Virus record (IMG/VR): IMGVR_UViG_3300035204_001874
Span: 66,120-130,119 of that record
DNA: 64,000 bases
Strand: one strand, 5' to 3'
Origin: a virus
The translations under genes were made by a program, and so were the position numbers. The notes beneath the pieces were generated by a model that made no database searches, was not told the origin of the DNA, and was given only the letters and a program-made list of their open reading frames with translations. Positions 16,740-63,591 of the stretch are shown here, piece by piece. Every line of letters begins with the position of its first letter. Within the stretch, counting starts at the first letter, position 1.

Positions 16740-19700
16740 TTACACCGCTCCTATATTATCTCCCCCATTACCGATTCCAGCTTCATTTACTGTTTTATTT
16801 ACTAAGTCCCTAAGTTTACTGTATTCTCCCGCTACTTGCGCCAAAACTTGGTCGGAAGCTTTACGCGCCTCTGTTTGGCTCACGCTTCCGTCAGATTGAA
16901 CTTTCAAATGTATTTCTCCCTTATTGATGAGGTCTAACGTTCCTGTGATTTCGGTCGTATCGCCGCCTTGTTTGTTAGCTGTTCCTTTTTCCTTTTCTTT
17001 ATCATCTAAGGCTTTATTGATCTTCTTAAGTACGGCAAGCAAGCTTTCGTTATCCTTGCTCTTGTCACCTTCGGTAGCGGCTTGTTTTTCCTTGGTAACA
17101 GCTTGTTCCCCTGCTTCATTAAGTTCTGTGACCGTGTTTGATTCGGGTCCGGCGAAAGGAGCCTTGGTATTCTTGATCGAGTCCGGCCAATTCATAACGT
17201 TGACTGAGGAACTTTGCCCCATCGTTATTCTTGATGCGGGATTAGGCTCGACTCCTGTTTCGGGGGTACTTCCCCAATCTTTATCTTTGGTTACAGGTGG
17301 GAAACGGCCGGGCAGTGCGTCTGTTTCGTCTGTTTCTACGGATGCGGTTTCTGTCGGTGCAGGTGTTGTGGTGGGGGGTGCAAAGGGGGTGGGTGGTACG
17401 TTCGGCCAATTCTTGATCGAGTCCGGCCAATTGGTGATTTCCACTTTCAATATTCCTTCTGTGGGCAAGCCTTTGGCATCAAGTACGGGTGGCCTTCCTC
17501 CTACGGGCAAGCCTGTGTTAGGATCAACTGTACGTGTAGATGGTTTTCTCCCGTCACCCCCGTCACCCATTTTTCTTCCCATTTGTTTGTCTATTCGCTT
17601 GAATCCTTTGCGGGTCTGATCGTCTGGCTTGTAATCTTCATCAGTCCCTACTTTTTTCCAAGTCTTGCCGCCATCAGTAGTTGTTGCTACTACTTTGCCA
17701 TTTATTGTTTTCTCACCTTTGCCAGTTTCTTTGTTAATGGATGAGACTAAACTGCTTCCGTCTTTACCATGTCCTCTCGCTTCCGTTCTTAACTCACCAG
17801 CATCTCCGCCTTTGGTTCCCGCTGCTGCACCCGCTTGACCTGCGGCACCTGCTCCTCCCATCGGGAAGGCTTGATTACTTCCTCCAGCCCCGCCGATTCC
17901 AGCATCATAACCTCCGCCAACATCGTAACCACCCATGCCTCTTCTACGAATTAATCGTCCACTTCCGGCCCTGAGAGATATCCCCTTACCGGGTTTGAAT
18001 TGTACTTTACCCGGCCAGTTGGTAACGAATACTGGCTGTACATCTTTTGCCATACCCATTCCCATTCCTCCGGCCACCTTCGCCATCAATCCAACCATTT
18101 GCGCTGGATTCATTCCTTCTTTTTCTTTTTTATCCATTTCGGCTTTTTGCTCTGGAGTTACGGCTCTCATTCTGCCGTCTGGACCCATTGCAAATTCTGT
18201 ATGCGCTGAACCTAACGCTTTTTGCGATTCTTTAAATTCCTTAGCTTCTTCTTCAGTATAGAATTGATTTTTAGCAACATTCATTCCGACGAATTCTGAT
18301 TTCATTTCTGCGCGTACTTGGCCCATAGCTTGTTGTCCGGTAGCTTCATCTATTTGCCCCCCCGCCATTTGCATTCTTATTTGCTGCTCTCTAGCCTTAA
18401 GCTCTTTGAATTTTTCTGCTCTTTGTTGAATTTTGATTTTGAGACCCTCGGTTGTCTTTAGAGCCTCTGTTCTTTCCTCTTGGCTAAGGACTTTTTCTGG
18501 AGCTACGTCTTGGAAGCCTTCTCTTATGGTGATGCCTTCGCCTCTCTCAGCTTTGCCCTTATCTTCTTCCAGTTGTCGTATATGAGCTTGACGACGTCTT
18601 TCGGTTTCAGTATCACCTTCACCCTTTACCCCTACGTCTTCGAAATCGTCTACATCTTTTCGGTATACCCTTGTTCCGTCTTCTCTGTATACCCCAACGG
18701 GTGCCCTTCCTCTTTTGCCTTCTTTTTCACCTATTGACTCATAATATCCTAATTGGGCTATGGCTTGCTGGTCTCCTTCGTCAGCCAGTTCCCGTAGTTG
18801 TTTCATGGATGAATACGCTTTGTCTTCTCCAACAATTTGAGACCTATAAGTCTCTTTACGTTCTTGAATTAATCGATTGTCTGCTCCAAATTGTTTTATA
18901 GCTTCTTCATCCATGTCGAAGCCGGATTTTTCAGCGTCTTTTTGCAATTTTGTCATTCTATTATTCCAGCTTTGCATTGCTGACTTCTTCTCATCCTCAT
19001 CTTCAATAGCCATGATATCGCCCCATTCAACTTGCATACCAAACGCTTTTGACCGCAAACTTTCCTTCTCATTTTCGGACGCGGACTTGAGTTCATTAAT
19101 CTCTTCGTCTATGCTGGCTATATACTCGCTCCTTACTGCCTCCTCTTCGCCTTCTCTTCCCAATTGACCAGCAAGCTGTTCCGCGCTCATGACTTCTTTT
19201 ACTCCACGATCACCCAAAGAGAGGGCTGCTCCCATTTCTCTTTCTTGTGCCGTGTAGCCTTGTTGGCCTATTTTTCCGGTCCTAGCTTGAGTGTCTTTTA
19301 TTCGTTTTTCAAGGTTTTGCTTCTGGACCTTCTCCTTATCTGTGAGTGTTTCTGTTTCTTCTTTGGTTTTTAGTTGCTGAAGTTCTTCCCTGTCTTTTGT
19401 AAACTGATCTCTTTGTTCTGTAGTTAGGCCAGTGGCACCAAGGAGTCTTCTTTCTTCTATTAGTTTTTTCTTTTTTTCTTTTTTCTCTGCCTCGAAATCC
19501 TCTTTTGATTGGCCTTCTTTTATCTTGCTCTCATCAACAGCTTTGATTGCAGTTTCAATTCTTTGTGCTTCGGTAAATCTTTCTTTTCTTCTTCCTATTA
19601 TTTTTTCTCTTTCTTCTTCTCTATCTGCGCTTGTCATGAACTCGGTTTTAGCGAGCGTCTCGTTACGCAGAACCATTCGTTGTCTTTCTGCTTGCTGTTG

Positions 19701-40700: not shown

Positions 40701-43700
40701 GTAAACCTTTCCAAATGGCCCTTTTTTCAAAAGGTCAACAATTGGAAGATGCATATTAAAGCCGCTGGTTGACCCATCATCTGGAAGGTCTTCGTCTTTA
40801 ATTGTGCGATTAATAATTTGTTGTCGTAAGCTGTCATCTTGCACTAGGCTTTTTTCCATCATAAGCATAGCGTTATGGACTCGTTCAAATTTTAATCTAT
40901 AATTAGGGTGGTTTTTAAATGTAGGATCAATGCTAGTTTCTCCAGCAAGAAGTAATTTAGCAGCGTCCCTTTCTTCTTGGCTAGAATCTGGTCTGTATAA
41001 AGTTTCTTCTAACGTAACCAACGCTTCCTTATCATTGGCGATAGCTGAAGTCTCTCTTTGTTTTGATTGTATTTCTTCGGCAACTTTAGGTTGTCCGTCT
41101 TGGTCAGTGCTTGACCAATCCCAAACTGAGGGGTGTCTATCCCAATCAGCGAAAGCGTCTAATATATTAAGTCGAGACTTGTTGAGCTCTTGCCAGTACC
41201 AATCTGCATTCTCTTTTACGTCCTCAATTTGTGATTTATCTAAATCGCTTTTTTCTAATCTGAAAAGCTCAGAATAAGTTTTTGCTGGTCCTCGTCCGCT
41301 AACTTCATTGAACACGCCGTTTATGATTCCCCAAGTTGGAGCTCCCGTAATCGAACCACCACGTTTTTGATATTTTGACCAGCTTATGTCTGGATGATCT
41401 TTGCTATTAAGGTCGCCTTCGAACGCTTTTATCCCAAAGGGAATCTCTCTGAAATCTTTAGTTGCTAACCCAGAGGTCTCTCTTGATTCTGCTTGCGTCG
41501 GAGCTAACCATTGAGCTTTTATTCCAAAGTCAGCTTTCGACATAACCCCACCGAAAGGTTGGTTTGTCACGAAGTTTGGAACGAAACCTCTGTTTAGTTC
41601 TTCGAGCCCTTTCGAGCCTAACGCTTTCATACCCGCTTGGTTTACCACACCTTCTCCCCCGAGGAGCATGGCTGGTTGTTCTTCATTAAAGTTGGGAACT
41701 ACGCCTCCAGAGTGGAATTTAGGAATGAAGCCTTCATTTGTTATTTTGTATTCTTCTGGCTCTTCTTTTTTCTTGTCAAGACCCAAAAGTTGAAGAGCTT
41801 TTTTTATTCCTTTTGCACCTACCGACTTAGTGCTGCCCCACAGCTTTCCAACAGCTTCTCTTTTTGCGGTCTCTGCATCGTTCCACGCTCTATGGCTCCG
41901 TTGTGTCCCACTTCCTTCCCATCGATTCTCAGAATCGACAAAATTAGGAACAAAACCAAAACTCTTGGAGGTGTAGGCGGCTTGAAAATCTTTAGCTTTC
42001 ACTCTTACGGATTCGTCCGTTAGCTTCATTGTTGATTCAGATAAGCCCATTAAGTAAATCAAAAAATCATCATCCAAAGCTCCCATGATACCCCCAGTTA
42101 CAGAAGCTAGTTCTTCCACTTTGTCGGGAGACGTAAGGGTTGAGGCGAGCAGCATTTCAACTTCTCTTGCGTGCCCTTCTGATTCAGTTTTGCTCCTTTG
42201 GTGAGCGATTTCGTGAGTGATGGTCGAAATAATACTCTGATAAAGCCTTTTTCTAATTAGTGGAAGACGTTCATCCTCCTCAAGACCTTCCAAGTCAGGT
42301 TCACCGCGTGTTTGATTCCTAAGACTTGTTTTCGTTGACTGCATTATTGATATAGGGTCAAGTAATACTTCGGTTCCTAGCTTTAAGTCTAAATCTTCTT
42401 TGGAAGCTGCCGCGTACTCCTTACTTGCCATTAGGCGGTCCTTATCTGAACCTACATTTACCCCCTGCCAGGCGGCACCTAAAGTAAGACCTCGGAATTT
42501 GACGCCCCTATAAGCTTGATCAAGCTCTTCAGTGGCAGATTTTGCGACAAAGTCAAAAGTCTTTTGCATGGCTCCTGCAAGCTTTATCATTCCTGGGTGT
42601 TCGGAAGCCCCCTTTAGTAAGGCTTCTCCTTCTTCTGTTTCCGACAGAAGGTTTACGTCTTTGACAACTAGACTTTTTTGCCCTTCAACGATTTCTCCCA
42701 TCCTTGTTTGGGGTATGCCTAATGAGGCTTCTGGCGTGCCTCTTGTTTTTTCTTCTTGTATCGTTTTTAAATCCGACGCTATGTCTTTCATTCGTTCTGC
42801 GGCAGCTTCGCCAAATGCTCCTTTTAGTCTTCGTCTATCTTTATCCCAAGGGTAATCTTCCGTTCCCACCGCAGCACGACTTGAAACGCTAAACATTAAG
42901 TCTTTCGGTACGTAATCCATTGCCATTTGCAAGGAAGAATAACGTTGCCCTTCTGAAAGAATTGGGATATCTGCTTTACCCCAACCTGTTTTGATTGGGG
43001 GAACAGAGTCATCAAAGAGAATATGTAGCTTGCCCGTAGCCGTTTTGGGAGGTTTCGGCAACTCTATCGTTTCGTGAATTTTAGCGTTGGCTGGTTCGGC
43101 AATTATAGGTTCGTTCCAATGACTTTCTAGATGTTTTTTTGATAAAACTTCTGGATTTTGTGTTCGAAATGTTAAAGCTGCCCCAATGAAATCAGAATCT
43201 TCAGTCATTAACAGTGGTATTTCTGCTATTCTATGGCTTCTAGCGCGAGCCATGTTCTTTATTGTTTGCTCTGCTTCTTCGACACCGGAAACTGACATCG
43301 CTTCTTTAGTTGGGTCCACTATCATAGTTGTCCCAACTAATCTTTTTTCGTATTCCTTATCTTCTTCTTCGAACAAGTCCTGCATGGCAGTTGTGGATTC
43401 GAGCTCTTCTCCTTCTTTAAATCGATACCCTGGCCGATACCCAATATCTAAAGGGTTTTTATAGGCGTGTGATGGCGTTCCCTCTACGGTTTTGAATTCG
43501 TGTTTGTCGATAAGCTCTCTAATGGGGCGCGTAAGATAATCGTGTCTTGTTATATCTTCGTTCTCTTCATCAATGAAATCATCTAAATCAACAGCAATGT
43601 GTGTTGCGCTTTTATCCTCGTCGCCCCAGCTTGGACCGCGTTTAAATCTTTTTCCTCCAACTTCACTAGTGCCAACAAACACCGAAGCTTCGTCATCAGA

Positions 43701-46700
43701 ATCCGAAGAGAACTCACCTTCAAGAAATTTTTTTAGTTTAGCATAAAGACCCGGCTTCTCTTTTTTTTCTTCTTCTGTCGCTGACCTTATGGCTTCTTCG
43801 CTTTGCTCGGTTTCGACTATTTTTCTTGTTTTTCGCGCTCCTTCTATCGTTAACTCACGAGTATTATTATATTCCAAACCTGATTCTTCATCGAATAATT
43901 TGTGCCCAAAAAAAGCATTAGCATTCTTTGCTGCAAGACTGTACCCTTTTTTCCTTCTTTCTTTGAGGCTCTCTTCTAACTTTTCGATCTCTTCTAATAA
44001 TTCGGGTCTTTCTTGCGGCAACCAAGAGCCACCTTCGGTTAGCTCTTCAAAATCTTTTACCGTCCCAATTGTTTTCCATTGCATCCTCAAATCCTTACTC
44101 ATTGGAGAAGTCGCTAGTTCTCCTTGAGGTTGGTCGAAAAGGTCTTCTGGTGGTGGAGTAAACGGCTTTGTAACAAACTCTTTCCAACCCTTCGCGTTAC
44201 CAATCATCTTGGTTCTTATCCTATTACCTTTAACATTAGCAACGGTATCCAAAAAGAATTCTTTTCCAGCTAAAAAGATAGAAGATTTCCCCATCCCCAA
44301 ACCAGCTAAAGCACCCTCATCCCTTTCTATGTCTTCCATCCCTGTTTGGGCCATAGGCAAGAAAGTTTCAAATACTGCTCTAGGAGTCATGCCCTCGCCA
44401 AGGTCAGATATAGTAAATGCGCCATCATGGTACAATGGCTGATTATAATGAACTCCACTTCGGTCTTCTGTTTGTCCGTGGGCTACTGCGTTTTGGAGCA
44501 TTTCTCTTAACGCGATCCCTTTGTAGGCGGACATATCCGATAAAGCTATTGCAAGAAGTCGGTCTATGTTAACCGCCCTCGTTAACCCTTGAGCTATTCC
44601 CACGGGTACACTTTGAGGGTCAGTTTTTGCCCACTCTTTAATATCGCTTGCTGTTTCTGACTCTTTTCCCTTAAGTTCTTCATTAAGTTTAGTTATGTCT
44701 TCAATTGACGGTAACCCACTTGAGTCTGAGAAATTTGGAACGTACCCCTTATTTAATTGGTTAAGTCCTTTCGGGCCTAACGCTTTCATGCCTTTTAGAT
44801 TTACGACTCCCTCACCTCCAAGAAGCATAGCTGGCTGTTCTTTGCCGAAACTTGGAACAATTCCTCCTGTGTGAAATTTTGGAGCAGAACTTTCAAAAAA
44901 ATCGAAGGATGATCTTTCGTCCCTTTTTGTCTCTTCCTGTTTTTCTTCTGGGGCGAGATCAGTTTTTTCTTTTGATTCAAGCTGCTGGTCTGCTTTTTCT
45001 ATGTGCCGTTGGGCATATGTGGCAATTTTTTTATCTTGTGCGGAAGGAGCTCGCGGGGCCAAAGCGGCCTCGTGAAGTATGCTCATTTTTCGTTTGTTTT
45101 CTTGTGGGTCTTCTTCTGGGTCAGAATCAATTAGTACTCTTCCGCTTGTAGCGTGAAGTATTAAGTGAGGTTCTTCTTTTGCGAATTCTCCAGCCGCATC
45201 ATAATGAGCGCGTTCGTGTTTTCTTATGTCTTCTTCTGTGGCTTCCGCTCGTTTTTCGTATGGGCTTCGTGGACCTTTTCGCATTGAACGACGGAGCATT
45301 TTATCTCCCGTTGGGCCATAAAAAATATCTCGGAAATTAGGGACAAGACCCTCCGAGAGGCTTACTAGACCCTCCTTGTCTGGATCATGACTCCCTTCTC
45401 TTTTTGCTTTGGCTCTTTCTGCTATACCCTGCAATACTTTAGCGGCTTTTGGTGACGCTACCGGAATATTTCCTGTTGGTATCGTGGACATGTAGGTTTC
45501 ATAGTCTAATACGTGCCTACCCACCCTACTTAATTCTGGATAATTTCTAGCGATAATTTCGGTTTCGCTTTCTAGCTCTTCAAGTAAAGGTGTTAGTTTG
45601 CCTTGCTCTACCTGCACTTCGCTTTCTAATCTTTGCTGTTCTTCGGGCGGCCTTTTCGCTTTTTTCGCTTCCCTTAGATTGTCTTTGGCGACTTTTATAC
45701 CGCTTCTTTGCGAGCCTACATTTTCAACAAGTTCAGAGTATGACTTAAGTGATTCTCGCAGGTTTGGATTTGATACAATTAGATTTTTTAAATTTGATAC
45801 GTCTTCTGCTGACGAAATTAAAATGTTATCAGTTAGTTTCCCAAGCTCTTTAGAGAGTGGGTTAGGATGATGCGCGAAAGTAGCTTTGCTTGGATCAAGA
45901 TTTGGGAAAGCGGTACCCTCCCTATTTGAAACTAACCCTAAGTTAGTTGCTCCAGCCATTTGTATTTGCTGCATATAAAACTGCATTGCTGCAAGTAGGT
46001 ATTCTTTTTCCGCTCCCACAGAGGTATTATATAAATCCGCAAAATCTTGACCTCCATGTCTATATACGTTTTCTTCTAAAATTCCTTGGTCTGTTTTACC
46101 CAATCTCCTTACAAAGCTTATGTTATCTTCGATTTTTTTATTGTCGTAATCCTTAATGGCGGTTTCCAAAGGGTTAATTCCAAGTTCGCTGACGGCAGTA
46201 AGAAACTCGTGCCTTGTTTCGTATTTTATAGGGTCTTGCGCTTGAGACTGATTTAATTCTCCTGTTATTTTGTCAACGTTTTGGAATTCGCGAGGCATAT
46301 ACTGCTTCATAACATAGTCTGTTATCTCTACTGTCTCTATGGGGTGATCGTTTCCATAAAGCTCTATATACCTTTGCGCTTCTTCTTTTGTTCCTTGGTG
46401 TGGTTGGCCTTCGCCTTTTATTGGTAAGCTGCGTCCGTGCCAAGGTTGATATGCGGGGTCATTGGCAGCGTTATATCTTACTTCATAGATGGGAATAGCG
46501 TTTCCTTTTTCATCTAATTCGCGGTAAGCTATTTGGCCTCTGCCTATTCCTACAAATTGTTTATCAAATTTAAGTTTTGGTTCGCCAGATTCTTCCATTC
46601 CAAAACTGGATTTAACCGTTATCCAATCGCCTTTTGCGGAATTGAAACCAGATATCCCCTTAACGAATTCAACCACCATGTCTTCATTGATTCTTTCGGA

Positions 46701-49700
46701 TATCCCCGTTTGTAGCGTTTCGTCAGACTTAACGTCTAAAATTTCATATTCTCTTTTACTAAAGCTTTCGCCTTCCTCGTTTTGATGTGATGATATTTTT
46801 TCCAAGTAGGAAAGAGAGCCTACACTCTTACCAAGGTTTTCCGGCCCTAAACCAGCTTTAGACGCTTTAGCCCTAGTTCCTAAAACGCTAACGTCTACCC
46901 GCTTGGGGTCTTCTAACGTACCCGTTCCCGATATATCAACTTTTGTTCTTCCTTGAGCTTTAGCCGCAGCAGACTGTAGTGAACCAGCGGCACCTACAAA
47001 AAACTCTTCAGCAAAAGCTTTTTCATCTTTTAATCTATCTTTGAATTCTCTCTTAATTTCTTCTGCAAAGTTTGGTATGCCACCTTGATTTGCCATTCCT
47101 TTTATATTGAAATTAAAATCGGGATACCCCTGTTCAATGTTGAAGTTGGGAACAAACCCTTCAGCCCCGAGTAGAGCTTTGTCCATCAACCCTCTTTTGA
47201 ATGCTTTTTTTAATTTTTTAGCTTTGACATTAAAATCTATAATTCCAAGATTTGGATAAACCTGATTTTCTTCGTCAAATTCTGGTTCATAGGCTATAGC
47301 TTCGTCCGCTTCATCTTCTTTCCCCTTCTTTATGTATTTTAACACCATTGAACCTTCGCTCGTCTCTATTGCTCTTACCGGCTCTCCCAGTTCGGTATCG
47401 TAATAAATTGAATTATGTTTTAGGGGTCTTTCGGTCCCTGGGTGAGCCATTGACTCAACTAGTGCTTCTCTAGCTTCAGCCTCTTCTTCTGTTTCGTCTT
47501 CACTCTCCTTTAGGTCTTTGGAAGAGAAAGTTTTATCATCAGTCGTTTTGAGATGTATACTTGCAAAACTGGGAACGAATCCTTCCGCAAAACCTTCCGT
47601 TTCTCTGTGGCCAAGAAATTCAGAAACTTGATCCGTTTTCTTTTTCATGTCCAAGGTGAAAATGTCAGCCATATTTGGCTCATATTCCCCTTCGTATCCA
47701 CGAACTACAAATGTTCCATCTTCTTTTCGTATTGCTGTGACAACTTCACCCTTACTTACGTCGTAATAAAGTGCTCCTGGACGAAGCTCCGTTGGCTGTT
47801 GTCCAGCCTCGCGTGCCAAAGCTTCTGTTTTTTCTTTGTGAAAATGTTTAGCGGGGAAAGGTTTGTCTGACTCATCTTTCGGTTTAATACGAGCCCACCT
47901 TTTTGTCTTCCTTCTTTCTTTTTCGTCTTCGAAGTTGGGGATAAATCCACCTGCGGAGTTGTTAATTTTACTAATGAATGTTCCTATGTTTTGTCCTGGT
48001 CCCGAAGTTATTTTATCAGTGTGGACTACTCGCCCCGAAGAGTAACCTGCCAATGCCGCTCCCCTTTGCTCTACAGACGCTATTCCAGAGGATACGCTAA
48101 AATTGGGTACGTGACCTCCAGCGGCGACTTTACTAAAGGAAAATCCTTGAGCTTGAGCTTTTCCCGTATCAAGCGCGGCCATTTGAGGAGGATTTAATAT
48201 GCCAGTTTTCCCTCCTTTATGAATAAAAGTTTCCGCAGTGTTTACAATGGCAAAGTTGGGAACGTGCCCCTTAGAAAAGGTATTGGGAGCTTCAGAAAAA
48301 TTAGGGGCGAAGCCCATGCCAGAACTAGGAATGAAACCTGAGGCGAAAGGCATAACTCCAGCCATTGTGGCGTCATCTTCATTTTTTTTTACAGTAACTC
48401 CACCCGCAGCTAATTTGACCGCTATACGTCCAGCTATTTTTTCTTGCTCACGATAGAGTGCGTTTTCGTCTCTAATTCTGGTTAAAATCCTGTCGTGGGC
48501 TGTTTGGATAGAAACAGAGCCATTCAATATGTCCCTTAATAACTCTGGATTTTCTGCTAATTGACCAGTGATAGCCTCTTGTATGTCTTTGAAATCTGAC
48601 GCTGATTGATTTTGGCTAGAAAGCTGAGACAAGGCACCTGAAGCAAATTGTACTAAGTTTCTGACTAGCCCTACGCCTAAAGCGATCATCCCTTGCAAGG
48701 CGGGTCCAGCAAGTACAGCCCCAAGTCCCGAAGTAATTGCAGACCCGAAACGTTCCCCAAGCAGGGTGCCTTCTTTTTCACCTTTTTCACTATCTGGAGT
48801 TGTTACGTCAGCTATGCCACCTAAAGTCCCACTTACTACGTCAAGTCCGCCTTTAAGAACGGGAGCGATAACTATATTGCCTATTCCTGCTGCCGCCCGA
48901 CTAGCTTCATTTAACGTTCCGATTAATTTGCCTTGCAGAGTATTATTCAGTTCTTCCATTCTTCTTTTAGCGTTCCCAGAAGAATTCCCCGCCGTTTCAA
49001 GAGCCCTGTCAAACAAGCTTAACCCACTACCCAAATCACTCAAGGTCGCCTTTAAAATGTTGATTTGGTAAACGCTACCAATTTGCTCAGTGATGTAGGA
49101 TTTTTGAGCAGCAGTTAAATTGTCAAATACCTTTGCTAAATTTTTCATTACCTCCATCAAAGGTAGAGCCTTGCCTTGAGCATCTTTTGTCTTTACGCCT
49201 AGTTGTTCGAGAGCTTCAAGTGTTTTAGGTCTTTGAAGTCTCGTGAAAATAGTCTTAAATGCGTTACCAATTTTAGCTCCACCTCTAGCTGTAATTTGTT
49301 GAGCAGCAGTAACAACAGCGATTGTTTCGTTGAGCGAAACGTTAGCTGATTCGGCTGAACTAGCCACGCGCCTAATAGCTTCGGCTAAGTCTTTGGAGCT
49401 TACGGCAAACGCCGCATCAACAGCAGCCATTCTATCTACAACATCTGTAGTAGTTAACGCTTCACTTCTGAAAGAGTTGATTGCTGCCGTTAAAGCTACT
49501 ACTGAAGCGGTCAAGTCAAGCCCCGACAGCTTCGTTAAGACCATTGCATCACTAGTTCTTCGAAGCGTTTCTCCCGCGCTTAGACCTTGTCTTGAGAACT
49601 CCGCCGCTGCTTCTGCTGCTACGCCAAAAGCGGTATTTGCCGCAGCCGAAGCTTCGAACAGTTTATTAGAAAATTTAGCTAGACCTTGAGAGTTTAAGCC

Positions 49701-50000
49701 AAGAAGAACGTTGATCTCTGTAAGGGCGTGTTCAACATTTATAGTTTCTTCAACCAGCTTCCTGAATGCGCTTTGGACACCAAAGATCATTCCCGCAGAA
49801 GCACCGAACGCTATAACGCGAGCGTTGGATGCTTCGAGGGATTTAGCGAATTCAGAGGATTTACCAGTTATCCTACCGAGCGGTTGCTCAAAGTTCCTCG
49901 TGTTAAGTTTCCCAATGTCCCTTCTTTGGTTAACCGCACGGTTAATAACCTGCTCTAGTGGTCTAGCATCGCCACCTACTTGTAAAAGAATATCAGCCAT
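16740..50000 (-). CDS. Giant tail tape measure protein / multi-cassette polyprotein (11,086 aa)
   Basis: Uninterrupted 33.3-kb ORF after the tail tube and chaperone-position genes. Residues ~80-350 show TP901-type TMP motifs (EFSRQGL, VSSKDLAEAIRR, GAKIGNAFKTIFTRL, LEQLGV). The C-terminal part has Gly-zipper hydrophobic segments. Confidence 0.9.
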   Translation of the reverse strand: MADILLQVGGDARPLEQVINRAVNQRRDIGKLNTRNFEQPLGRITGKSSEFAKSLEASNARVIAFGASAGMIFGVQSAFRKLVEETINVEHALTEINVLLGLNSQGLAKFSNKLFEASAAANTAFGVAAEAAAEFSRQGLSAGETLRRTSDAMVLTKLSGLDLTASVVALTAAINSFRSEALTTTDVVDRMAAVDAAFAVSSKDLAEAIRRVASSAESANVSLNETIAVVTAAQQITARGGAKIGNAFKTIFTRLQRPKTLEALEQLGVKTKDAQGKALPLMEVMKNLAKVFDNLTAAQKSYITEQIGSVYQINILKATLSDLGSGLSLFDRALETAGNSSGNAKRRMEELNNTLQGKLIGTLNEASRAAAGIGNIVIAPVLKGGLDVVSGTLGGIADVTTPDSEKGEKEGTLLGERFGSAITSGLGAVLAGPALQGMIALGVGLVRNLVQFASGALSQLSSQNQSASDFKDIQEAITGQLAENPELLRDILNGSVSIQTAHDRILTRIRDENALYREQEKIAGRIAVKLAAGGVTVKKNEDDATMAGVMPFASGFIPSSGMGFAPNFSEAPNTFSKGHVPNFAIVNTAETFIHKGGKTGILNPPQMAALDTGKAQAQGFSFSKVAAGGHVPNFSVSSGIASVEQRGAALAGYSSGRVVHTDKITSGPGQNIGTFISKINNSAGGFIPNFEDEKERRKTKRWARIKPKDESDKPFPAKHFHKEKTEALAREAGQQPTELRPGALYYDVSKGEVVTAIRKEDGTFVVRGYEGEYEPNMADIFTLDMKKKTDQVSEFLGHRETEGFAEGFVPSFASIHLKTTDDKTFSSKDLKESEDETEEEAEAREALVESMAHPGTERPLKHNSIYYDTELGEPVRAIETSEGSMVLKYIKKGKEDEADEAIAYEPEFDEENQVYPNLGIIDFNVKAKKLKKAFKRGLMDKALLGAEGFVPNFNIEQGYPDFNFNIKGMANQGGIPNFAEEIKREFKDRLKDEKAFAEEFFVGAAGSLQSAAAKAQGRTKVDISGTGTLEDPKRVDVSVLGTRAKASKAGLGPENLGKSVGSLSYLEKISSHQNEEGESFSKREYEILDVKSDETLQTGISERINEDMVVEFVKGISGFNSAKGDWITVKSSFGMEESGEPKLKFDKQFVGIGRGQIAYRELDEKGNAIPIYEVRYNAANDPAYQPWHGRSLPIKGEGQPHQGTKEEAQRYIELYGNDHPIETVEITDYVMKQYMPREFQNVDKITGELNQSQAQDPIKYETRHEFLTAVSELGINPLETAIKDYDNKKIEDNISFVRRLGKTDQGILEENVYRHGGQDFADLYNTSVGAEKEYLLAAMQFYMQQIQMAGATNLGLVSNREGTAFPNLDPSKATFAHHPNPLSKELGKLTDNILISSAEDVSNLKNLIVSNPNLRESLKSYSELVENVGSQRSGIKVAKDNLREAKKAKRPPEEQQRLESEVQVEQGKLTPLLEELESETEIIARNYPELSRVGRHVLDYETYMSTIPTGNIPVASPKAAKVLQGIAERAKAKREGSHDPDKEGLVSLSEGLVPNFRDIFYGPTGDKMLRRSMRKGPRSPYEKRAEATEEDIRKHERAHYDAAGEFAKEEPHLILHATSGRVLIDSDPEEDPQENKRKMSILHEAALAPRAPSAQDKKIATYAQRHIEKADQQLESKEKTDLAPEEKQEETKRDERSSFDFFESSAPKFHTGGIVPSFGKEQPAMLLGGEGVVNLKGMKALGPKGLNQLNKGYVPNFSDSSGLPSIEDITKLNEELKGKESETASDIKEWAKTDPQSVPVGIAQGLTRAVNIDRLLAIALSDMSAYKGIALREMLQNAVAHGQTEDRSGVHYNQPLYHDGAFTISDLGEGMTPRAVFETFLPMAQTGMEDIERDEGALAGLGMGKSSIFLAGKEFFLDTVANVKGNRIRTKMIGNAKGWKEFVTKPFTPPPEDLFDQPQGELATSPMSKDLRMQWKTIGTVKDFEELTEGGSWLPQERPELLEEIEKLEESLKERRKKGYSLAAKNANAFFGHKLFDEESGLEYNNTRELTIEGARKTRKIVETEQSEEAIRSATEEEKKEKPGLYAKLKKFLEGEFSSDSDDEASVFVGTSEVGGKRFKRGPSWGDEDKSATHIAVDLDDFIDEENEDITRHDYLTRPIRELIDKHEFKTVEGTPSHAYKNPLDIGYRPGYRFKEGEELESTTAMQDLFEEEDKEYEKRLVGTTMIVDPTKEAMSVSGVEEAEQTIKNMARARSHRIAEIPLLMTEDSDFIGAALTFRTQNPEVLSKKHLESHWNEPIIAEPANAKIHETIELPKPPKTATGKLHILFDDSVPPIKTGWGKADIPILSEGQRYSSLQMAMDYVPKDLMFSVSSRAAVGTEDYPWDKDRRRLKGAFGEAAAERMKDIASDLKTIQEEKTRGTPEASLGIPQTRMGEIVEGQKSLVVKDVNLLSETEEGEALLKGASEHPGMIKLAGAMQKTFDFVAKSATEELDQAYRGVKFRGLTLGAAWQGVNVGSDKDRLMASKEYAAASKEDLDLKLGTEVLLDPISIMQSTKTSLRNQTRGEPDLEGLEEDERLPLIRKRLYQSIISTITHEIAHQRSKTESEGHAREVEMLLASTLTSPDKVEELASVTGGIMGALDDDFLIYLMGLSESTMKLTDESVRVKAKDFQAAYTSKSFGFVPNFVDSENRWEGSGTQRSHRAWNDAETAKREAVGKLWGSTKSVGAKGIKKALQLLGLDKKKEEPEEYKITNEGFIPKFHSGGVVPNFNEEQPAMLLGGEGVVNQAGMKALGSKGLEELNRGFVPNFVTNQPFGGVMSKADFGIKAQWLAPTQAESRETSGLATKDFREIPFGIKAFEGDLNSKDHPDISWSKYQKRGGSITGAPTWGIINGVFNEVSGRGPAKTYSELFRLEKSDLDKSQIEDVKENADWYWQELNKSRLNILDAFADWDRHPSVWDWSSTDQDGQPKVAEEIQSKQRETSAIANDKEALVTLEETLYRPDSSQEERDAAKLLLAGETSIDPTFKNHPNYRLKFERVHNAMLMMEKSLVQDDSLRQQIINRTIKDEDLPDDGSTSGFNMHLPIVDLLKKGPFGKVYDKTFTRIESYVEPEKKANLAAQALSDIALVSLSTKEDVEEQGGTVDPTTGLERTVARNREYVHFGIRQELIDAARRSGVIPEDSTFAQEIDKRIIEADQKAREHVDDFILNVILSGQGEETIDSHKAAAAARRAATPIESKPMGPERGLRVEQAISDIFLQVPEGGEKIPFDTMGGGRYQDISGHVSEEGAVIEANPLMEWAFVQGKELARAIRITGADVKTYGMRTKETTKASVQEKVRKEAEKLATEREGFDTETFLYRFWEGLDEGTLEVKEEGFAKGFTPNFVESRTDKEGYVPGDFFRAMGKRSMEGKQNEDGSYTEAMNEDRVSEAKFKIKEATGTDMGSEEEKRYKEWLSLTDEERKEQGKEKFSLGLAKRDRVKKDWGEMLHEDFEEAEYPRYRKFRGVLPNPLPPPDAHGNSIFTVPTNPGKPETMKRLGFKYVDRDFSQIGEIHSETWKGWDNDEVGAMEGMSLFFDEIFYSPDVGIQAKLREAGYSEESDEANKESIWKSLNAQVELSSWSGPISEGVLGEISGDYKGPIRAVFDYETGGTWIMPHKSDKILQAKKPNFTEQSALINRTQQFHGYGSDEALKQTDLIFEHGENETTGRISSLRGAEGLKATFDTARQFGEQEAIKSLAHSAFQKQNPHLKEEDRDKEIENIDYGWIGYVASPNIVSSEPIDTIENLEFARQSLANLRDGEMHFFNANSAMGEILENEEEKGTSEQIRKRLQQLTVASLPNIVINQRAKLREHIADFTDDKLSALVGHFTEGEVFDLDVLEGMHKQEAHKPFDSYESAFEWIKTYYNDNSPFQFPDFKTEEVRPHQLIFEDDLPKGRSFHLPVKFKSSLPPLGNFDEELFTTTYGLATSDKSIRIESTDESPTWARLLGFGKQHYSRIFSRAFEEGYKNVTSDRSVSAAAKGTYRSIHKDENQPFTVDFGKGGGSFEVTEVLENEQDYINVAEGSIPNFGDDPDNKDFGPLSEDEKRYFGKTLSDFRKVHGMGLGDLLELPEEEQQKILDSVKPQTQTEFPFTDIPKYHSGGLVPNFNKEQLAVLKGGEGVVNQKGMEKLGTKGLNNLNKGFIPNFAHEFPKGEIFERKDWSNKAKFLEKAGTTPFHRGSGRTAFRSSVREYLEYLNTGEVTSQSGESGPSTIGGSRMFAQHGGTPGDEDDDDRQMLEEYAEGGAPFGRPDSYIKEFEDDRGYIIDGQYAGATIIDDAISQHYEELTGFQNPALVAKDEDGSGPATTAAHGSEIHSYGATGVYDEEADEITGNPIAFNQFSPDSKIESLRTGKTYNLQKFLKKYAYKVAKAEGYKETGLARGFVPNFEDDRWKDMLNPLRTRTPSPDDSAYKAPWPYFENLETGPLKGVVEDVRRAKNGYLIGYDFNNEYKEILNKYFLAKYGQLNPLSDLSTEYWTRDDRGGEIYEDLADDFDFRLKNLGDRKETLKSRAVRPVHEGGLDRINKYPTIPEDLDEFYGRMLGIQEEFPHLGAPEHPTLNMPTVSMDVLGGAHNTLIGAIDMPDPNRLGAGEKEYDELKKGWEEQKEKYLREVLSSTGKLRGISSEMETYAGSVDITDLDQVQADQKRWEDTDGGKMKLTQGASGFSLGNEPSPMAMFRNAAPRPKEMSHLATLERSLGGEVTAGGFVPSFEEEKISPEQLGEMKETAKKVRDDDAPYFTDPKVRSKVNRILAWWMGGNALIMGAMEADPDMAGLVHLIKSLAESAGSLVGFPDGHIPNFNWEEGYATDKGIPNFGGPQTLKTEISNARNSIQPAWIIQKLNEEFKDKPKLSSDVGQISNSMHQIVSDEDYFEAFEKCAAEFAKLWNDDEEQAKLLNDFSGHISLIDDEKAKRFGSMGLIPNFDLTVKQAKEIDRQTGVKKQKSLNETMSNVGLTPLDKIKEIVSAEESLNEVLDAEAGYYGKGVNPDGSSILPTFEELEESNIDPEDLGDYTGFVPSFEEEVQYQSGVPAGRIQGEGPKYDVVPPVGHTEVSQTSTFMDQANQSWRAEVVPNLTGDAILSNNVFYQEPREGKEFKQKGSRKRKMLRTERGDRTKRWKSKAGGKNLLRAALRGSVVEGGLNIDNPQFYTHDAKGATEGRDPLEKIAEGVTTHGPGALGATAAGLTSQYSEEIARVVQGIADIPFSEGFVPNFDDSNKTPLEEILEEEDPSTGKLAKDVLTYGPGGIGVAAAGLTSMYPEKIAEFLDALSQLPLSEGFVPNFGDPSPSKGKTPLEEILKEEDPSTGKLAKDVLTYGPGGIGVAAAGLTSMYPEKIAEFLDALSQLPLSEGFVPNFALKKFDWENPEHELNQVYLEKLLDAGITHIAPDSRDADNINVEMAEQQLDQAKKALEQRVIDEEADLVQSQDTPKLEEVAVSMAEEDLRVAIARRDMKPEVVGETDKVEFVNTFLEDPLPVIPGDVSLPALQAKSINEFGLTLKEIGQMSDEDIEKHKNKGLLSDEAMKVAKSLQQQHPNQDKWSKAWGASEQNPENQAKGFIPSFSQPQTSQLSLSEKVNKAIDSILEALRGELPEEREIEPISEEALEGLQEEFGITENKKLKKEQLELPFESGGFIPSFVQTFNPFEEHRDEDTAQMLRRKRIIVLEQLMEDPDSTPEQVKAAHGHLREINKENIKRHYASAATGFIPNFAYGDEYEISEGAHRDRKMEIAEAMNLDLSKAASEGYLGRNTGKPLIDGRYLHAALYSAGYQVGTPLYEEVNKKLGIGAASGFVPNFSIFKSAGEMLYGTNLYKNRKKTLEDIKKERGLSRDTGPKGEQSEHDEYHALKEGLFPAAHRKIGETGEKIALGIGSVIEAPGKYLEGRRKRKAAEEEKETKRRERSEEIEQHNLTLDWLEAKDLDAEGKRQKIEALDKQDLLRGWGEAEEAHAESKRNKKFETVAETTPLPQDMLYSKGHVPNFGIFESAGEILYGTNLYENRKKALEDIKKERGLSRDTGPKGEQSEHDEYHALKEGLFPAAHRKIGETGEKIALGIGSVIEAPGKYLEGRRKRKAAEEEKETKRRERSEEIEQHNLTLDWLEAKDLDAEGKRQKIEALDKQDLLRGWGEAEEAHAESKRNKKFETVAETTPLPQDMLYSKGHVPNFNWEKGYDTSKDVPNFSILGLDLGSSTDPDVIQDWWDKSNESTEGEEGVAKWINELLGGEDKATGFVPNFRRRKQEPTGIEKFFDVKESPTLELLGEGVKGAAMMFALPVAAGLEYSKDDFEELTKLAGSGVGAVGEYVKEKFKADGHVPNFNWKKGYDTSKDVPNFRILGFDLGSTEGKEGPFEKTTEEDKAVAEWLDEKIKAVQDLFKGEDKAAGFVPNFDSETPVHPPMSEEGITASNKIDMRSTAVFGETRKKLQVLIEESNLDTRVKALTSVREQLQTHIQFLSPFVEETKADGFIPNFLHPEAKMASQLYGQNITNEDVRFGRGSLGGTIQDFAYNTKEEIITKQQFKNAGFVPDSDFAIMPPRGTPVGNKAWQTLEQRMSASLKFDGHIPEFVKFQGHIPEFVKFKGGIPNFATEEAKALEDERTISVQEQIDRENKNIVSSGAPDFELFKQVNPNWMREDSDAAKQLLELSWAHTQRQKVIEEYEEVLADGTEMMTPQEYLAIVNKYPEIYSGVSQPTVVQPPMGTTEKTEEAIQAAADIVTTTEQAEQAENVLLPPPEYPPGAVPKGEDVKVTDIAKHQKEVDLKQISEKGPIGDLTPEVQNLQQGDPFHDNAGIVAWTQYRDGRDTLWRHDVTLGGDGITKAGDEILDEGNFDEAILGENIDFQNKHIDESWHSDGSRDRLPDPGSNLENIFTFRDAGMLEAQKQDQGKLELTEEQWNDQALKFLADRYGIEYNDVKFETENENWSETFKNMQDQIMQDDFSEVENLDQLAALGVVSNQRTKLVNRPSVREAFETPGGGFAGGESFPPTDAIKFVERVQEADKNFVPLETTPQTLPIEVPPATREKVEKIAADVVDPDAVPPAPTTKDRSMDKAGVPPADLTPAPFGKIQGKSKWYKLPKPIGGISQIQTFQDEANRFWRVGLVEGTGSNLENPASPLIEPELHSHAFYQVRGDAGATEIKDTVKKPVKSDRGSRIDRWKEDGPVSLLDKALMGTRWPDAAKEGKALNNPSYWDYDDAASRKYLKDEETPAVLRDRPKTKPPADEGPQPPVIPTEIPASGLLRENWMPINDETAAKFGYTEQMRWLKGEEAGVYKNERWQHVLVDRGDKLGVLDRALYFPAGETASHMIGNSSDLPKQLFDIVRGKREEEKAEEVTEKVAEEVGETVPPPESIVPPLDPDAPVGNLKEDKFVSYSGSFPEKLGIKAAMTYQDEEENKFAFQFQYNEADEDNPLTILDNADRLAKGGAAWKEDGPRDTVFEGFNLKLQYTDGSIKEGADTGVGPLEKDEEPTSAGLPIDEPPKTEGMVITSKLIPVSAPSIPADGLVFADKVKDTDRARLRFLQRLQSEKTDTEKRKEVTELLLRETYGDISIEESTEEARKPEGLFHNTKLFENEKIKDSVVDEHFRDSAVQSANIKLMGQAESTRQKARAGFSEWPELYESHLEVSGAPANKMVKAGIENFDKIVTNVANLRTTTEAALDEAGFESVDEALKKAQEVTGEIGMKAPFETVSVEGVKRKIDSGIAYEIAERWRKIGFERISGQSSLISGEDKYEEGIERAKTEGKDQGHRFKMEKGAETMAETLGGSEAKDLPEVLPESDGPDLTVPSKDAAARGFIPNFAKTFSSGQALSASRDIPGASAAIKRETSALASRGVPNPSSKIQLHTMAKGSVPNFGAFVTNTIDEGFHSSPTSALGGIKSVHGASMTPSSSSFWKQGMAQGYTPNFTGGIGSKSGKDVPNFASGNLMEMQAQFSIVLGLMQSMDMTKDKFDSLDKDIALASQGMKFLAESEDKNKNIMTKAAKEFSENIIKSGTFDEGELKNIDEIAASKQGQQVMDTKAFETALADKLQAETVADEASLAAAKKEQSDAEEAGDTKKEEAAKEKVKTIEAGPKISRSEAEKRAKDKDEKKSFLAKQIQAKSKTEETRESLQAAKSEMATRVSKAAELEKEKKIIEVVISGERGELSEEEFAKKQEEAATFMKDSGKGNLTETLEAKKEEISGKLEATGGDAETAEGMSFEDLQAQVAELTSELAENSKASKALTDASLEAKTKEIDGEKGERKLQNAIESLEKAVSDQKKQVEEQEGIGNIEGAQAAQEQLEQIEETRDRYKAGMEKGQSFDQVKEGEKARIESAIEEKKELQAEKDRSGRMYQASAKFGGFAQGGIGLAFGEEQSNARQALEGVTTGATMAMQAMAAMPGPAGMAAAAMIGIGSVGAAAIDGFMGVVDMRKIAEINKAKFQELSSALTEYSQTLGQLTDAYGDPTVTTRTIDALNKKLMDTLNAIPDTEEGREIKSELAATADPQQRQQLIAQAQDTISRKQNVTESTMSMAEANLKALKGRWGMSLFGGGGISEGGSGLFSKRMVVGYQTDAQELETKENFRTAVRDFTTNLEPEQLDKMTSEFDGLNMATLSTASGAEAAVSALQRQGVMTKEFAEQLKKGGEDMKVFMMKLKEASDKRKRDKELMDVLTHSREKNLDVMQRLKTATQAANSAIQDMVGSLGELQKARVERKIFAQQRGIDKAAAFGIAGGQGITIGRETPRIAGGMHAAAMGTGVAGRTARGVFQPILGGPIPGGPRQGQPIMGAGGQVTNVPGEARTVMSGRLMGDVGREAFRAEVQTAALTTGEGTIQAAEGSAKMNEILEKAGVDMAGARAEAQGQFANFITQGLLGAAESTRTGTRGGVVANEAVMKAKKIAMDTTGRIQKQAAAEGWGPREMNKAMSDAFANAALDEAMADAQASGDAEMIREITNLRQSGDLNFDKIAGVLKEGGPEAMALQMFQETGGATESIKLEEAMLQQISKMSLETAKQTQIHLKQLIEQKKQLEINRAIQAAGGADAFSDRKKEREQTRTIQRAATRFTVTSDPIRKGRAAGDLAKAVQDAVGGGMGAAGKKMQDFAIKGNQLRIERFAERNIASLQRKKGRERTVEGKVAIQGMISEMQGLRGRAKTVATHQMEAKLKLENMPNNIEQSMKFLSAINRRLQQGINVIGQDMENEFDPLNDNFSTEIRNQTTQLLSRLDVLNQAIRDQKGESEALQQLEQKRTAAAELVIMAEQKGTFVDDTIADPADRAADAAAKKAAALAAIETGDAASLDTMMANMVDKMDRKNVSLTPDEFKSIESALRTGRFGESRAVEVAKSRTDATKVTVKVPELTREISELTAKIEQANAEGRHADAETLRGQRKDLRFQRGQAAGQLDLRQQSLIRKKDHNENTIALQSGYELSEGRNIGLEDQQMEMPDSSGVNWQAAGMFGGGLVGGGLLLNAILKRNMAKVNETLAKGVSASVAEGVNKALGRETGEKALEKTGGKLGGEAAEATAKEALEKTGGKLGGEAAEATAKGLSKTKIGLIVAAVGGLIWGGKKLHDASTQKVTPQKVTPAEADGAPEGVAAGDTAAATTGDISVGDASLDVAAANIMTSNANVIINGANVAGLEGIDASGPLQAKFSGGLTPPMSPPKVDPETGLPVPLAGGGGFNVKQQMEMMGFTKGKDEKQKENIKDLLDSDELFKGLEHQDFGVVDAINIGFSALTGGAGAAYGTVGRAGFLGTKALKDGARGMQGLKAGFEASKSYTKAAVGAGVLGVIGFQGSEGHMERMRNLSQRRQELGPVQGGFGRAMSAIFTGSTDTKRSMGTAGLTGAAVGAGIGTMLLPGWGTLIGAVVGGIAGVTTEHTKQKAFAARGAQEKMGMYSAMISKGGLSTGDRIIASLLRDILKVNIAMAGKKGMTAITEVTKAEKLAKEEFELRIDAAKEKAKNTKTEKTSKEKMADIRTGKVGPKTEEGGIQAKTVKLEPGGKVNLNPIGKAMPVHVVNISEMGVAGTPRGMIAGMTGGVGGGMNRQAMARINQAWDNMSPAQRQQVQYQMRQMGGAPPAGGAFGQGNRTSPQQQQAERQRMVLRNETLAKTEFMTSADREEEREKIIGRRKERFTEAQRIETAIKAVDESKIKEGQSKEDFEAEKKEKKKKLIEERRLLGATGLTTEQRDQFTKDREELQQLKTKEETETLTDKEKVQKQNLEKRIKDTQARTGKIGQQGYTAQEREMGAALSLGDRGVKEVMSAEQLAGQLGREGEEEAVRSEYIASIDEEINELKSASENEKESLRSKAFGMQVEWGDIMAIEDEDEKKSAMQSWNNRMTKLQKDAEKSGFDMDEEAIKQFGADNRLIQERKETYRSQIVGEDKAYSSMKQLRELADEGDQQAIAQLGYYESIGEKEGKRGRAPVGVYREDGTRVYRKDVDDFEDVGVKGEGDTETERRRQAHIRQLEEDKGKAERGEGITIREGFQDVAPEKVLSQEERTEALKTTEGLKIKIQQRAEKFKELKAREQQIRMQMAGGQIDEATGQQAMGQVRAEMKSEFVGMNVAKNQFYTEEEAKEFKESQKALGSAHTEFAMGPDGRMRAVTPEQKAEMDKKEKEGMNPAQMVGLMAKVAGGMGMGMAKDVQPVFVTNWPGKVQFKPGKGISLRAGSGRLIRRRGMGGYDVGGGYDAGIGGAGGSNQAFPMGGAGAAGQAGAAAGTKGGDAGELRTEARGHGKDGSSLVSSINKETGKGEKTINGKVVATTTDGGKTWKKVGTDEDYKPDDQTRKGFKRIDKQMGRKMGDGGDGRKPSTRTVDPNTGLPVGGRPPVLDAKGLPTEGILKVEITNWPDSIKNWPNVPPTPFAPPTTTPAPTETASVETDETDALPGRFPPVTKDKDWGSTPETGVEPNPASRITMGQSSSVNVMNWPDSIKNTKAPFAGPESNTVTELNEAGEQAVTKEKQAATEGDKSKDNESLLAVLKKINKALDDKEKEKGTANKQGGDTTEITGTLDLINKGEIHLKVQSDGSVSQTEARKASDQVLAQVAGEYSKLRDLVNKTVNEAGIGNGGDNIGAV
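21335..21454. repeat. 60-bp tandem duplication (ALEKTGGKLGGEAAEATAK x2) in the TMP
   Basis: Two essentially identical 60-nt units read directly from the sequence. Confidence 0.9.
31402..32505. repeat. 552-bp near-identical tandem duplication bounded by the VPNF motif
   Basis: AAGTTCGGAACG occurs at 31402, 31954 and 32506. The two 184-aa units differ at only a few residues. Confidence 0.95.
33823..34260. repeat. Tandem duplication of a ~70-aa cassette (units of 219 and 207 bp)
   Basis: KTPLEEIL.EEDPSTGKLAKDVLTYGPGG...LSEGFVPNF occurs twice. Motif junctions are at 33823, 34042 and 34249. Confidence 0.93.
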
Positions 50001-62913: not shown

Positions 62914-62919
62914 TTCAGT

Positions 62920-63591
<672 letters not shown>

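Follow-up and report, generated by a model that had tools for sequence, protein, structure and literature searches.

The giant tape measure protein (TMP) described here seems to double as a vehicle for protein cargo. Its gene lies in the IMG/VR virus record IMGVR_UViG_3300035204_001874, in a stretch of 64,000 nucleotides (positions 66,120 to 130,119 of the record) that will be referred to as the window. The product, 11,086 residues long, starts with a TMP domain, ends with a ruler region and holds between the two a long array of modules, bounded by copies of a short peptide motif, G[FY][IV]PNF in its most frequent form. Related strains differ in the cassettes they carry between these copies, and the protein is almost devoid of cysteine. 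From this we infer that the gene encodes the TMP of an uncultured marine siphovirus, that the cargo is packaged and ejected together with the TMP, and that the modules are most likely cut apart at the motif; the probability of this reading is about 0.55. Cleavage is the favoured candidate role of the motif, with docking of a chaperone as the alternative.

Architecture, family and linker motif

An earlier note on this DNA, made from the letters alone, had described a single open reading frame (ORF) with an N-terminal TMP domain, a helical C-terminus of about 3,100 amino acids with Gly zippers and, between them, about 7,400 amino acids of mostly unrelated acidic segments. This description holds. 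The ORF has an ATG start and its sole stop is terminal, in a window free of N. The N-terminal domain passes the gathering-score test for PF10145 (Phage-related minor tail protein; Table 1), and 17 of the 18 PHROG families matched by the protein are labelled tape measure protein, with best stretches that all start within residues 15-185. A transmembrane (TM)-like segment is present at residue 428. The middle region spans 7,370 amino acids and is acidic in net charge in each interval of 250 residues; in a chunked self-search the inter-motif segments were mostly unrelated, with few internal repeat families. Segment sizes had been put at ~10 to ~1,200 amino acids, of which the lower end agrees (9 amino acids), while the upper end was found at ~1,330. 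The C-terminal 3,151 amino acids are free of the motif, Ala/Gly-rich and Pro-poor, and 9 of the protein's 17 GxxxGxxxG matches fall within them; two of their hydrophobic stretches are TM-like. Pieces of this ruler are 29-60% identical to the ruler of relative P0001. The gene occupies the expected place in a tail module, after two genes in chaperone position and before the distal tail genes, these roles being assigned by position only.

Relatives of the giant were sought among proteins of 5,499-17,499 amino acids (1,519 candidates). Nine metagenomic TMPs of 5,603-7,702 amino acids were found, with 7-20 motif copies each. Their N-terminal TMP domains all align with that of the giant, at 37-65% identity, and PF10145 is present in all eight for which Pfam hits are on record. 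The earlier note had proposed comparing related TMPs for conserved flanks and variable cassettes, and this is the pattern observed: flanks are kept and cassettes differ. Apart from the N-domain, small modules and ruler pieces, the giant and the nine relatives have few cassettes in common, namely only residues 1018-1500, shared with P0001. In five of the relatives (P0002, P0005, P0006, P0007 and P0009) a motif-free stretch of ~1,100-1,600 amino acids stands in the middle of the protein, with motif-bounded cargo on both sides.

The family extends much further. At least 398 relatives of the N-domain exist in IMG/VR, from marine and other samples, and the best 80 of these (loci) were used for the family analyses. 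These loci contain 64 complete TMP ORFs, mostly of 1,700-2,900 amino acids. The basic member has four motif copies, near residues 540, 622, 890 and 965, in the order N-domain, motif 1, 82-aa modA, motif 2, ~270-aa cassette, motif 3, 73-aa modC, motif 4 and ruler; this exact layout occurs in 38 loci. Among 79 family ORFs, profiles of modA, the cassette and modC match 74, 56 and 70, respectively. In locus L077 the ruler is preceded by modC alone, with one motif, and in the giants extra copies of modA and modC also border cargo beyond the ruler. Judged by these alignments, the TMP of the window, with its ~39 segments, appears to be an extreme expansion of a slot that is present family-wide. In locus L017 (12950-13100) the frame shifts in a poly-A run 32 amino acids after motif 4 and the ruler resumes in another frame; a genuine split of the TMP was rejected there, since these features point to a sequencing frameshift. 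No close cultured phage was found: identity to the best phage records is ~25%, across no more than 56% of the 800-aa N-terminal query, and no phage record matches the window at the DNA level.

How often the motif occurs in the giant depends on how strictly it is defined. About 45 copies of G[FHYL][IV]P[NS]F had been reported in the earlier note; this pattern is found 30 times, and a number close to 45 is reached only with the degenerate core P[NS]F (44 copies). With the looser G..P[NSDT][FYWL] there are 39 copies, and with the core [IV]P[NS]F there are 40, where composition would predict 0.18. All copies are situated within residues 563-7947. The logo of 474 unique contexts reads [AK][SA]xG[FY][IV]PNF[A], with G and P at 100%, N and F at 92% each, and a small residue (A, S or G) after the Phe in 69%. 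Information is restricted to positions -3 to +6, with nearly none beyond. The motif is also highly specific for this protein: in 3.0 million six-frame residues of the 80 loci, 321 strict copies are found inside TMP ORFs and none outside. In the window itself no true copy exists outside the TMP frame, three loose matches being unconvincing.

The 39 copies of the giant use all four Gly, all four Pro, both Asn and both Phe codons, which indicates that selection acts on the peptide; the codon pattern thus argues for a motif maintained as an amino acid sequence. The peptide is also kept among phages with N-domains that are merely 37-52% identical. Both facts bear on the idea that the motif is mainly a recombination joint or the scar of cassette insertion, with no function in the protein. 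Duplications and strain-level deletions do begin and end at motif copies, and across residues 5246-6416, and only there, the motif DNA is homogenised (GTT CCG AAC TTY), which fits recent duplications in that region. Elsewhere, however, all synonymous codons are in use while the peptide is kept, and 18 nt are short for homologous recombination. Together with the conservation across such divergent phages, this makes a mere joint or scar very improbable.

An AF2 model of the basic slot, based on a 40-sequence alignment, has a mean pLDDT of 68.9, with three modules at ~80. Values below 50 occur at residues 1-30, 107-113, 374-382 and 457-481. Motifs 1-3 (26-31, 108-113 and 378-383) are covered or overlapped by the first three of these stretches, and motif 4 (451-456) is part of a block of mean pLDDT 53 directly before the fourth. 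Their position in low-pLDDT linkers suggests that the motif is not part of a fold; it is modelled as a short linear peptide signal in disordered linkers between folded modules. The model therewith has the hallmark of processed viral polyproteins, a conserved short motif at the junctions of predicted folding units. In locus L019 (11630-14095) all five copies have PNL or PSL where other phages have PNF, a concerted change that fits one common reader. The motif is thus probably read by a single trans-acting factor.

Strain variation, cassette content and cysteine depletion

The sequence of the window occurs in public seawater and marine metagenomes, for which 20 runs from 11 studies are listed, none of them RNA runs. 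Contigs from four of these runs (X1, X2, X3 and X9) were compared with the window. The contig sets of X1 and X2 are identical, and the two runs perhaps represent the source sample, which may have been filed twice. Across 28220-31431 and 34340-48000 these contigs do not differ from the window; they break only at two tandem duplications (31402-32411 and 33879-34340), where the depth about doubles. X3 and X9 are from other studies and represent strains that are 95-99% identical, whose contigs cover the compared region in pieces. All 13 net length differences worked out among those listed for X3 and X9 (15, 21, 36, 516, 441, 1149, 633, 504, 168, 48, 9, 9 and 3 nt) are multiples of 3, which fits a coding frame under selection. 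Fragments in the Tara Oceans station 37 assemblies are 99-100% identical to the giant.

These data make it extremely unlikely that the giant is an artefact of a chimeric or repeat-inflated assembly. It is true that short-read contigs break at both tandem duplications and that X1 and X2 may not be independent. Nevertheless, a single contig spans 34340-48000, the depth doubles only at the duplications, the independent strains X3 and X9 differ only in frame and the Tara fragments match. Moreover, nine other assemblies have yielded relatives of 5.6-7.7 kaa.

The differences between strains are concentrated at the motif. Of six joints between X9 and the window, four have both ends within 10 amino acids of a motif, against a chance expectation of 13.5% per end. 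In two of these four, other sequence has taken the place of one cassette. Between the motifs at residues 4957 and 5053, X9 has 743 nt in place of 239 nt, and between those at 4745 and 4851 it has 486 nt in place of 318 nt. As far as these contigs can tell, a near-identical strain exchanges cassettes at motif copies, in frame. Recent gains are also visible in the giant itself, as a duplicated 184-aa cassette and as diverged copies of a ~70-aa cassette (Table 1).

What the cassettes encode can be recognized in a few cases only. The best case is a predicted GHKL (Bergerat-fold) ATPase followed by a zincin-like domain, at residues 1758-2681, for which 19 relatives were found in a search of 1.84 billion representative proteins. 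HATPase_c families are matched by 6 of the 7 relatives scanned for them, and RIIA-type PHROGs weakly by 5/5 scanned. All 15 sequences keep the catalytic Glu and Asn as well as the DxGxG and GxxK boxes without change. For the AF2 model (mean pLDDT 66.3), the Foldseek matches listed are all Hsp90-family N-domains, with a best E of 1.7e-3, narrowly short of the 0.001 mark. A free-standing homologue of 513 amino acids (P0015) has the same two-domain layout, and in the giant, P0012 and P0028 a motif directly precedes the cassette. At least one predicted catalytic domain therefore appears to be present in one polypeptide with a TMP, as indicated by its conserved boxes and its modelled fold. The suggestion in the earlier note that some segments have enzyme motifs stands for this cassette, with its GHKL and HExxH signatures; most of the remainder has no database match.

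In relatives, the cargo includes PF01743 (nucleotidyltransferase), PF13671 (kinase-like P-loop), PF23802 and PF14284. In P0001, P0002 and P0006 each P-loop cassette, ~180 amino acids long, takes up precisely one inter-motif segment and has its Walker A ~40 amino acids past the motif, and AAA_33 in L025 (1482-1615) and PcfJ in L061 (1923-2026) are each confined to a single segment. All located Pfam, Walker-A and GHKL features are inside one segment, so that the proposed role of the motif as a module boundary is upheld by domain content as well as by the low-pLDDT linkers. Homology can cross a motif, as residues 6455-6645 of the giant match the end of the N-domain plus modA of P0004; the motif is therefore a boundary mark and not a barrier. 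As a rough pointer, from a redundant set without shuffle control, 57% of the C-terminal ends of 13,061 high-scoring segment pairs are within 10 amino acids of a motif. A side observation concerns a mini-module of ~40 amino acids between two motif copies, which occurs in the giant at 1684-1758, 2756-2857 and 4111-4187 and once in P0002. It presumably resembles the Gly-Glu-hydrophobic motif near the C-termini of many TMPs.

The remainder of the array is orphan sequence. Searches of the cargo zone and the ruler against Pfam, PHROG, NCBIfam and PDB sequences gave only weak HATPase_c_3 and SprA-related matches, both below cut-off. For residues 2811-4141 the homology search returned only 3 fragments of this very sequence, and for residues 2806-4142 the ESM Atlas gave only hits below 0.8. 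A PD-(D/E)xK nuclease was suspected from the pattern FE...DF...ADxK in the basic ~270-aa cassette. Support came neither from Foldseek, with no match at E <= 0.001, nor from VIA-align, with a best Z of 4.0, and the nuclease is no more than a candidate identity.

Cysteine is another feature that cargo and TMP have in common. The giant has a single Cys in 11,086 residues, its nine relatives have 6 in 61,234 and the IMG/VR family ORFs 24 in 194,595, as compared to 102 in 9,165 (1.1%) for 23 neighbouring ORFs of the window. The free-standing P0015 has Cys at four positions where the aligned TMP-embedded cassette has A, S, V and S. In Thermus phage P23-45, likewise, the TMP has no Cys in 5,002 residues, the fused RNA polymerase included, while eleven other proteins from its structural-gene region have 10 in 5,208. 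The shared lack suggests that the cargo shares the fate of the TMP and fits its travel with it. It might mark a protein that is kept in unfolded form and crosses an oxidising compartment, and near-complete absence of Cys may then serve as a sequence signature of proteins that phages store unfolded and eject. Separately, 14 large proteins of 500-2,500 amino acids (P0013-P0026) have a related GHKL domain; 12 of them lack Cys and none has the motif. The Cys-free ones may be ejected proteins of other phages.

Fate of the cargo and candidate readers of the motif

The conserved flanks, the variable cassettes, the swaps of X9 at motif copies and the Cys lack common to cargo and TMP support the proposal, already made in the earlier note, that the TMP doubles as a cargo vehicle. 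In the mechanism that we favour, the cargo would stay part of the TMP and travel in the virion in unfolded form; the simplest place for it would be the tail lumen, as in P23-45. It would leave the tail ahead of the DNA and probably enter the host first. The motif is most likely where the modules would then be cut apart, possibly after the Phe, as a small residue usually comes next, and the resulting modules could act as free early effectors. A protease acting in trans is favoured as reader because of the high information of the motif, the small residue after the Phe and the single motif at each junction.

Two pictures of the virion can be drawn. If the protein is uncut, the tail would measure ~1.66 um (11,086 x 0.15 nm); if the cargo is removed, ~0.47-0.56 um. 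The earlier note had argued that folded enzymes do not fit a tube lumen and that the protein would for that reason not serve as a ruler in full. This argument has lost its force, as tail length is said to be defined by the P23-45 TMP even though this protein carries a working RNA polymerase (PMC10770324). An uncut protein in a tail of ~1.6 um is therefore possible. One could go further and imagine a protein-level cassette array, in which one linker peptide marks every module, strains gain, lose and swap effectors freely, the whole string is held unfolded in a tail of more than 1 um and injected ahead of the DNA, and a single reader, protease or host chaperone, releases or refolds the modules. 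This broader picture is tentative and clearly less probable than the reading given above; if true, a siphovirus would possess a programmable device for the injection of multiple effectors.

Several observations weigh against packaging, ejection and cleavage. No cleavage product, protease or virion is on record, and neither the window nor the 10-kb flanks yielded a conserved protease that tracks the motif. HExxH is present in only 8 of 73 complete family members (a count that excludes L072, a wrongly picked ORF), and the motif is kept in members without it; the giant has two, at residues 1595 and 2596. The motif is absent from all other ORFs of the window, and is therefore not a general prohead-protease site. 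P23-45 carries its enzyme without the motif, which shows that it is not required for this purpose. The cargo on both sides of the ruler in five relatives is awkward if only part of the protein is in the tube. Furthermore, most cassettes have no recognisable fold or function, so that the term effectors derives from a handful of domains, with a single identified effector-type cassette among the many unrelated modules of the giant. The AF2 models, finally, are of middling confidence (mean pLDDT 68.9 and 66.3).

The strongest competitor does without cleavage. Here the whole protein would be unfolded in a tail of ~1.66 um, and the motif would dock a host peptidyl-prolyl isomerase or chaperone, for example periplasmic SurA, which protects the modules and aids refolding as they emerge. 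With the hydrophobic residue that follows, the core [FY][IV]PN is similar to the 7-residue peptide WEYIPNV, which is reported to bind the SurA P1 domain with a Kd of 1-14 uM (PMC7195389). The Pro is invariant and each module has one motif, the P23-45 TMP is said to define tail length with its enzyme on board (PMC10770324), and 20 of 21 metagenome-assembled genome (MAG) bins with relatives are labelled diderm, 8 of them Flavobacteriales or members of that order, although such binning is unreliable for phage contigs. On the other hand, the first aromatic residue of the SurA consensus (aromatic-polar-aromatic-nonpolar-Pro) is missing from the motif, and chaperone motifs are usually far more degenerate than one with G and P at 100% and N and F at 92%. 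ATP-using cargo such as GHKL and P-loop kinases must reach the cytoplasm, and tails longer than ~1 um are not described in the literature found, as far as the accessible text of PMC10034513 goes. A complex prediction for E. coli SurA (21-428) with residues 1735-1775 of the giant gave a score of 0.00 without controls and is evidence neither way. We consider docking without cleavage unlikely, if more plausible than any of the other alternatives.

A polyprotein of late expression is a further and rather improbable option. In that case the protein would be cut at the motifs before tail assembly, with the N-domain, the adaptors and the ruler entering a tail of ~470-560 nm and the cargo acting, unpackaged, in the producing cell. 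This would solve the problem of space, also for those relatives in which cargo flanks the ruler on either side, and it agrees with a motif at every junction followed by A, S or G in 69%. It leaves unexplained, however, why acquired enzyme domains have lost their Cys and why the cargo is fused to a structural protein of low copy number, and the failure to find a protease in the window or the 10-kb flanks counts against it as well.

The genes upstream of the TMP gene, encoding proteins of 286, 198, 146, 165, 297 and 317 amino acids, are conserved in 60-75 of the 80 related loci, their functions being assigned by position only. The two next to the TMP gene are in tail-assembly-chaperone position; usual tail assembly chaperones are much smaller. 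Profiles of both proteins gave no useful match to PDB sequences. In the window the two genes share a frame, with a stop and 15 nt between them, but readthrough was dropped as an idea, as of five relatives only L002, L011 and L025 share the frame and L006 and L048 do not. The 286-aa gene, a candidate major tail protein, has no Pfam or PHROG hit. A tail-region protein with a Peptidase_M43 domain was considered as universal reader of the motif and is unlikely to be one, as relatives are found in only 8 of 80 loci, though many loci end before that gene. A family-2 glycosyltransferase and a Calx-beta domain protein are encoded beside the head genes; locus L025 has a relative of the former at 58% identity. 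The 545-aa protein encoded upstream of the candidate capsid gene (382 aa) gave weak coiled-coil-type matches only; conserved in 13 loci, it may be a scaffold.

Table 1. Coordinates of the TMP gene, its parts and neighbouring features in the window (residues refer to the TMP unless stated otherwise)
Feature	Position	Strand	Basis or remark
Giant TMP gene	16740..50000	-	11,086 codons + stop; ORF list, translation
N-terminal TMP domain, residues 1-562	48315..50000	-	PF10145 and TMP PHROGs
PF10145, residues 125-306	49083-49628	-	102 bits vs Pfam gathering cut-off 33.2
Cargo array, residues 563-7935	26196..48314	-	~39 motif-bounded segments, 9 to ~1,330 aa; mostly orphan sequence
Predicted GHKL (Bergerat-fold) ATPase, then HEIAH...E..H zincin-like domain, residues 1758-2681	41958..44729	-	weak Pfam HATPase_c_3, relatives, AF2/Foldseek
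Three diverged copies of ~70-aa cassette, residues 5246-5393	33822..34265	-	self-search, strain contigs
Tandem duplication of 184-aa cassette, residues 5827-6194	31419..32522	-	95-100% identical; contig depth ~doubles; X3 and X9 lack copies
Pre-ruler adaptor module with three motif copies, residues 7824-7935	26196..26531	-	common to P0002, P0004, P0006, P0008
Motif-free ruler and C-terminal domain, residues 7936-11086	16743..26195	-	TM-like segments at residues 8413 and 9864
927-aa tail-region protein	11509-14292	-	Peptidase_M43 at its residues 171-271, E 4e-12; relatives in 8/80 loci
317-aa gene, tail-assembly-chaperone position	50060..51013	-	relatives in 69/80 loci
297-aa gene, tail-assembly-chaperone position	51029..51922	-	relatives in 75/80 loci
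286-aa conserved tail gene, candidate major tail protein	53585..54445	-	by position only; 70/80 loci, up to 48% identity
545-aa protein, may be scaffold	58701-60338	-	weak coiled-coil-type matches only
Family-2 glycosyltransferase (296 aa) and Calx-beta domain protein (223 aa)	62023-63591	-	

Significance and known systems

The giant is the extreme member of a widespread, undescribed family, with at least 398 relatives in IMG/VR, in which the TMP seems to double as a carrier of exchangeable modules. If the cargo is ejected, these proteins would form a natural catalogue of the effectors that phages use in the first minute of infection, most of them of unknown fold. They would also provide a defined peptide signal, the reader of which experiments could look for, and a direct test of what sets tail length and of the capacity of a tail for protein other than the ruler.

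Among known systems, gp96 of Thermus phage P23-45 is nearest to this protein: its 5,002 amino acids combine a TMP with a virion RNA polymerase (Chaban et al. 2024, PMC10770324). TMPs are thought there to be metastable in the tube, and the fused enzyme is proposed to be injected and to act at the entry pore at the start of infection (PMC10770324). Both proteins are giant TMPs that carry globular enzyme domains, head-proximal in gp96, and Cys is absent from the one and nearly absent from the other. They differ in that gp96 has one enzyme and no G[FY][IV]PNF, whereas the TMP of the window has ~39 modules and more than twice the length of a TMP that was already called giant. A modular array or turnover of cassettes is not described for gp96 in the accessible text of that paper (PMC10770324). 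Beyond TMP character, no sequence relationship between the two was noticed, no direct comparison having been made.

As a concept, the polyvalent proteins of phages and conjugative elements come closest (Iyer et al. 2017, PMC5512222). They are large multidomain proteins combining unrelated effector domains, to which the many unrelated modules in the TMP of the window may correspond. Their entry into the host along with the DNA is predicted, and processing into pieces has been proposed. TMPs are, however, mentioned 0 times in the main text of that paper, and an explicit junction motif is not described in it as far as accessible (PMC5512222). Embedded zincin-like peptidases are proposed as processors of polyvalent proteins (PMC5512222), which is not the situation here, with HExxH in 8 of 73 members.

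TP901-1-type TMPs have in common with the giant the PF10145 domain, hydrophobic segments and a gene placed behind two others in chaperone position. The difference is one of distance: cultured relatives reach ~25% identity, on no more than 56% of an 800-aa query, and no phage record matches at the DNA level. A literature search found no description of a motif-delimited TMP cargo or a TMP polyprotein, nor the motif strings in a phage context (one unrelated match), supplementary files being outside the search. Viral polyproteins with protease recognition sites have a short conserved peptide in the linkers between independently folding units. Here, in contrast, the protein in question is a structural protein of a dsDNA phage, for which cleavage is only proposed. 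What is new in comparison to all these systems is the explicit junction peptide, a modular slot in hundreds of phages, the exchange of cassettes at the level of strains and the sheer size of the protein.

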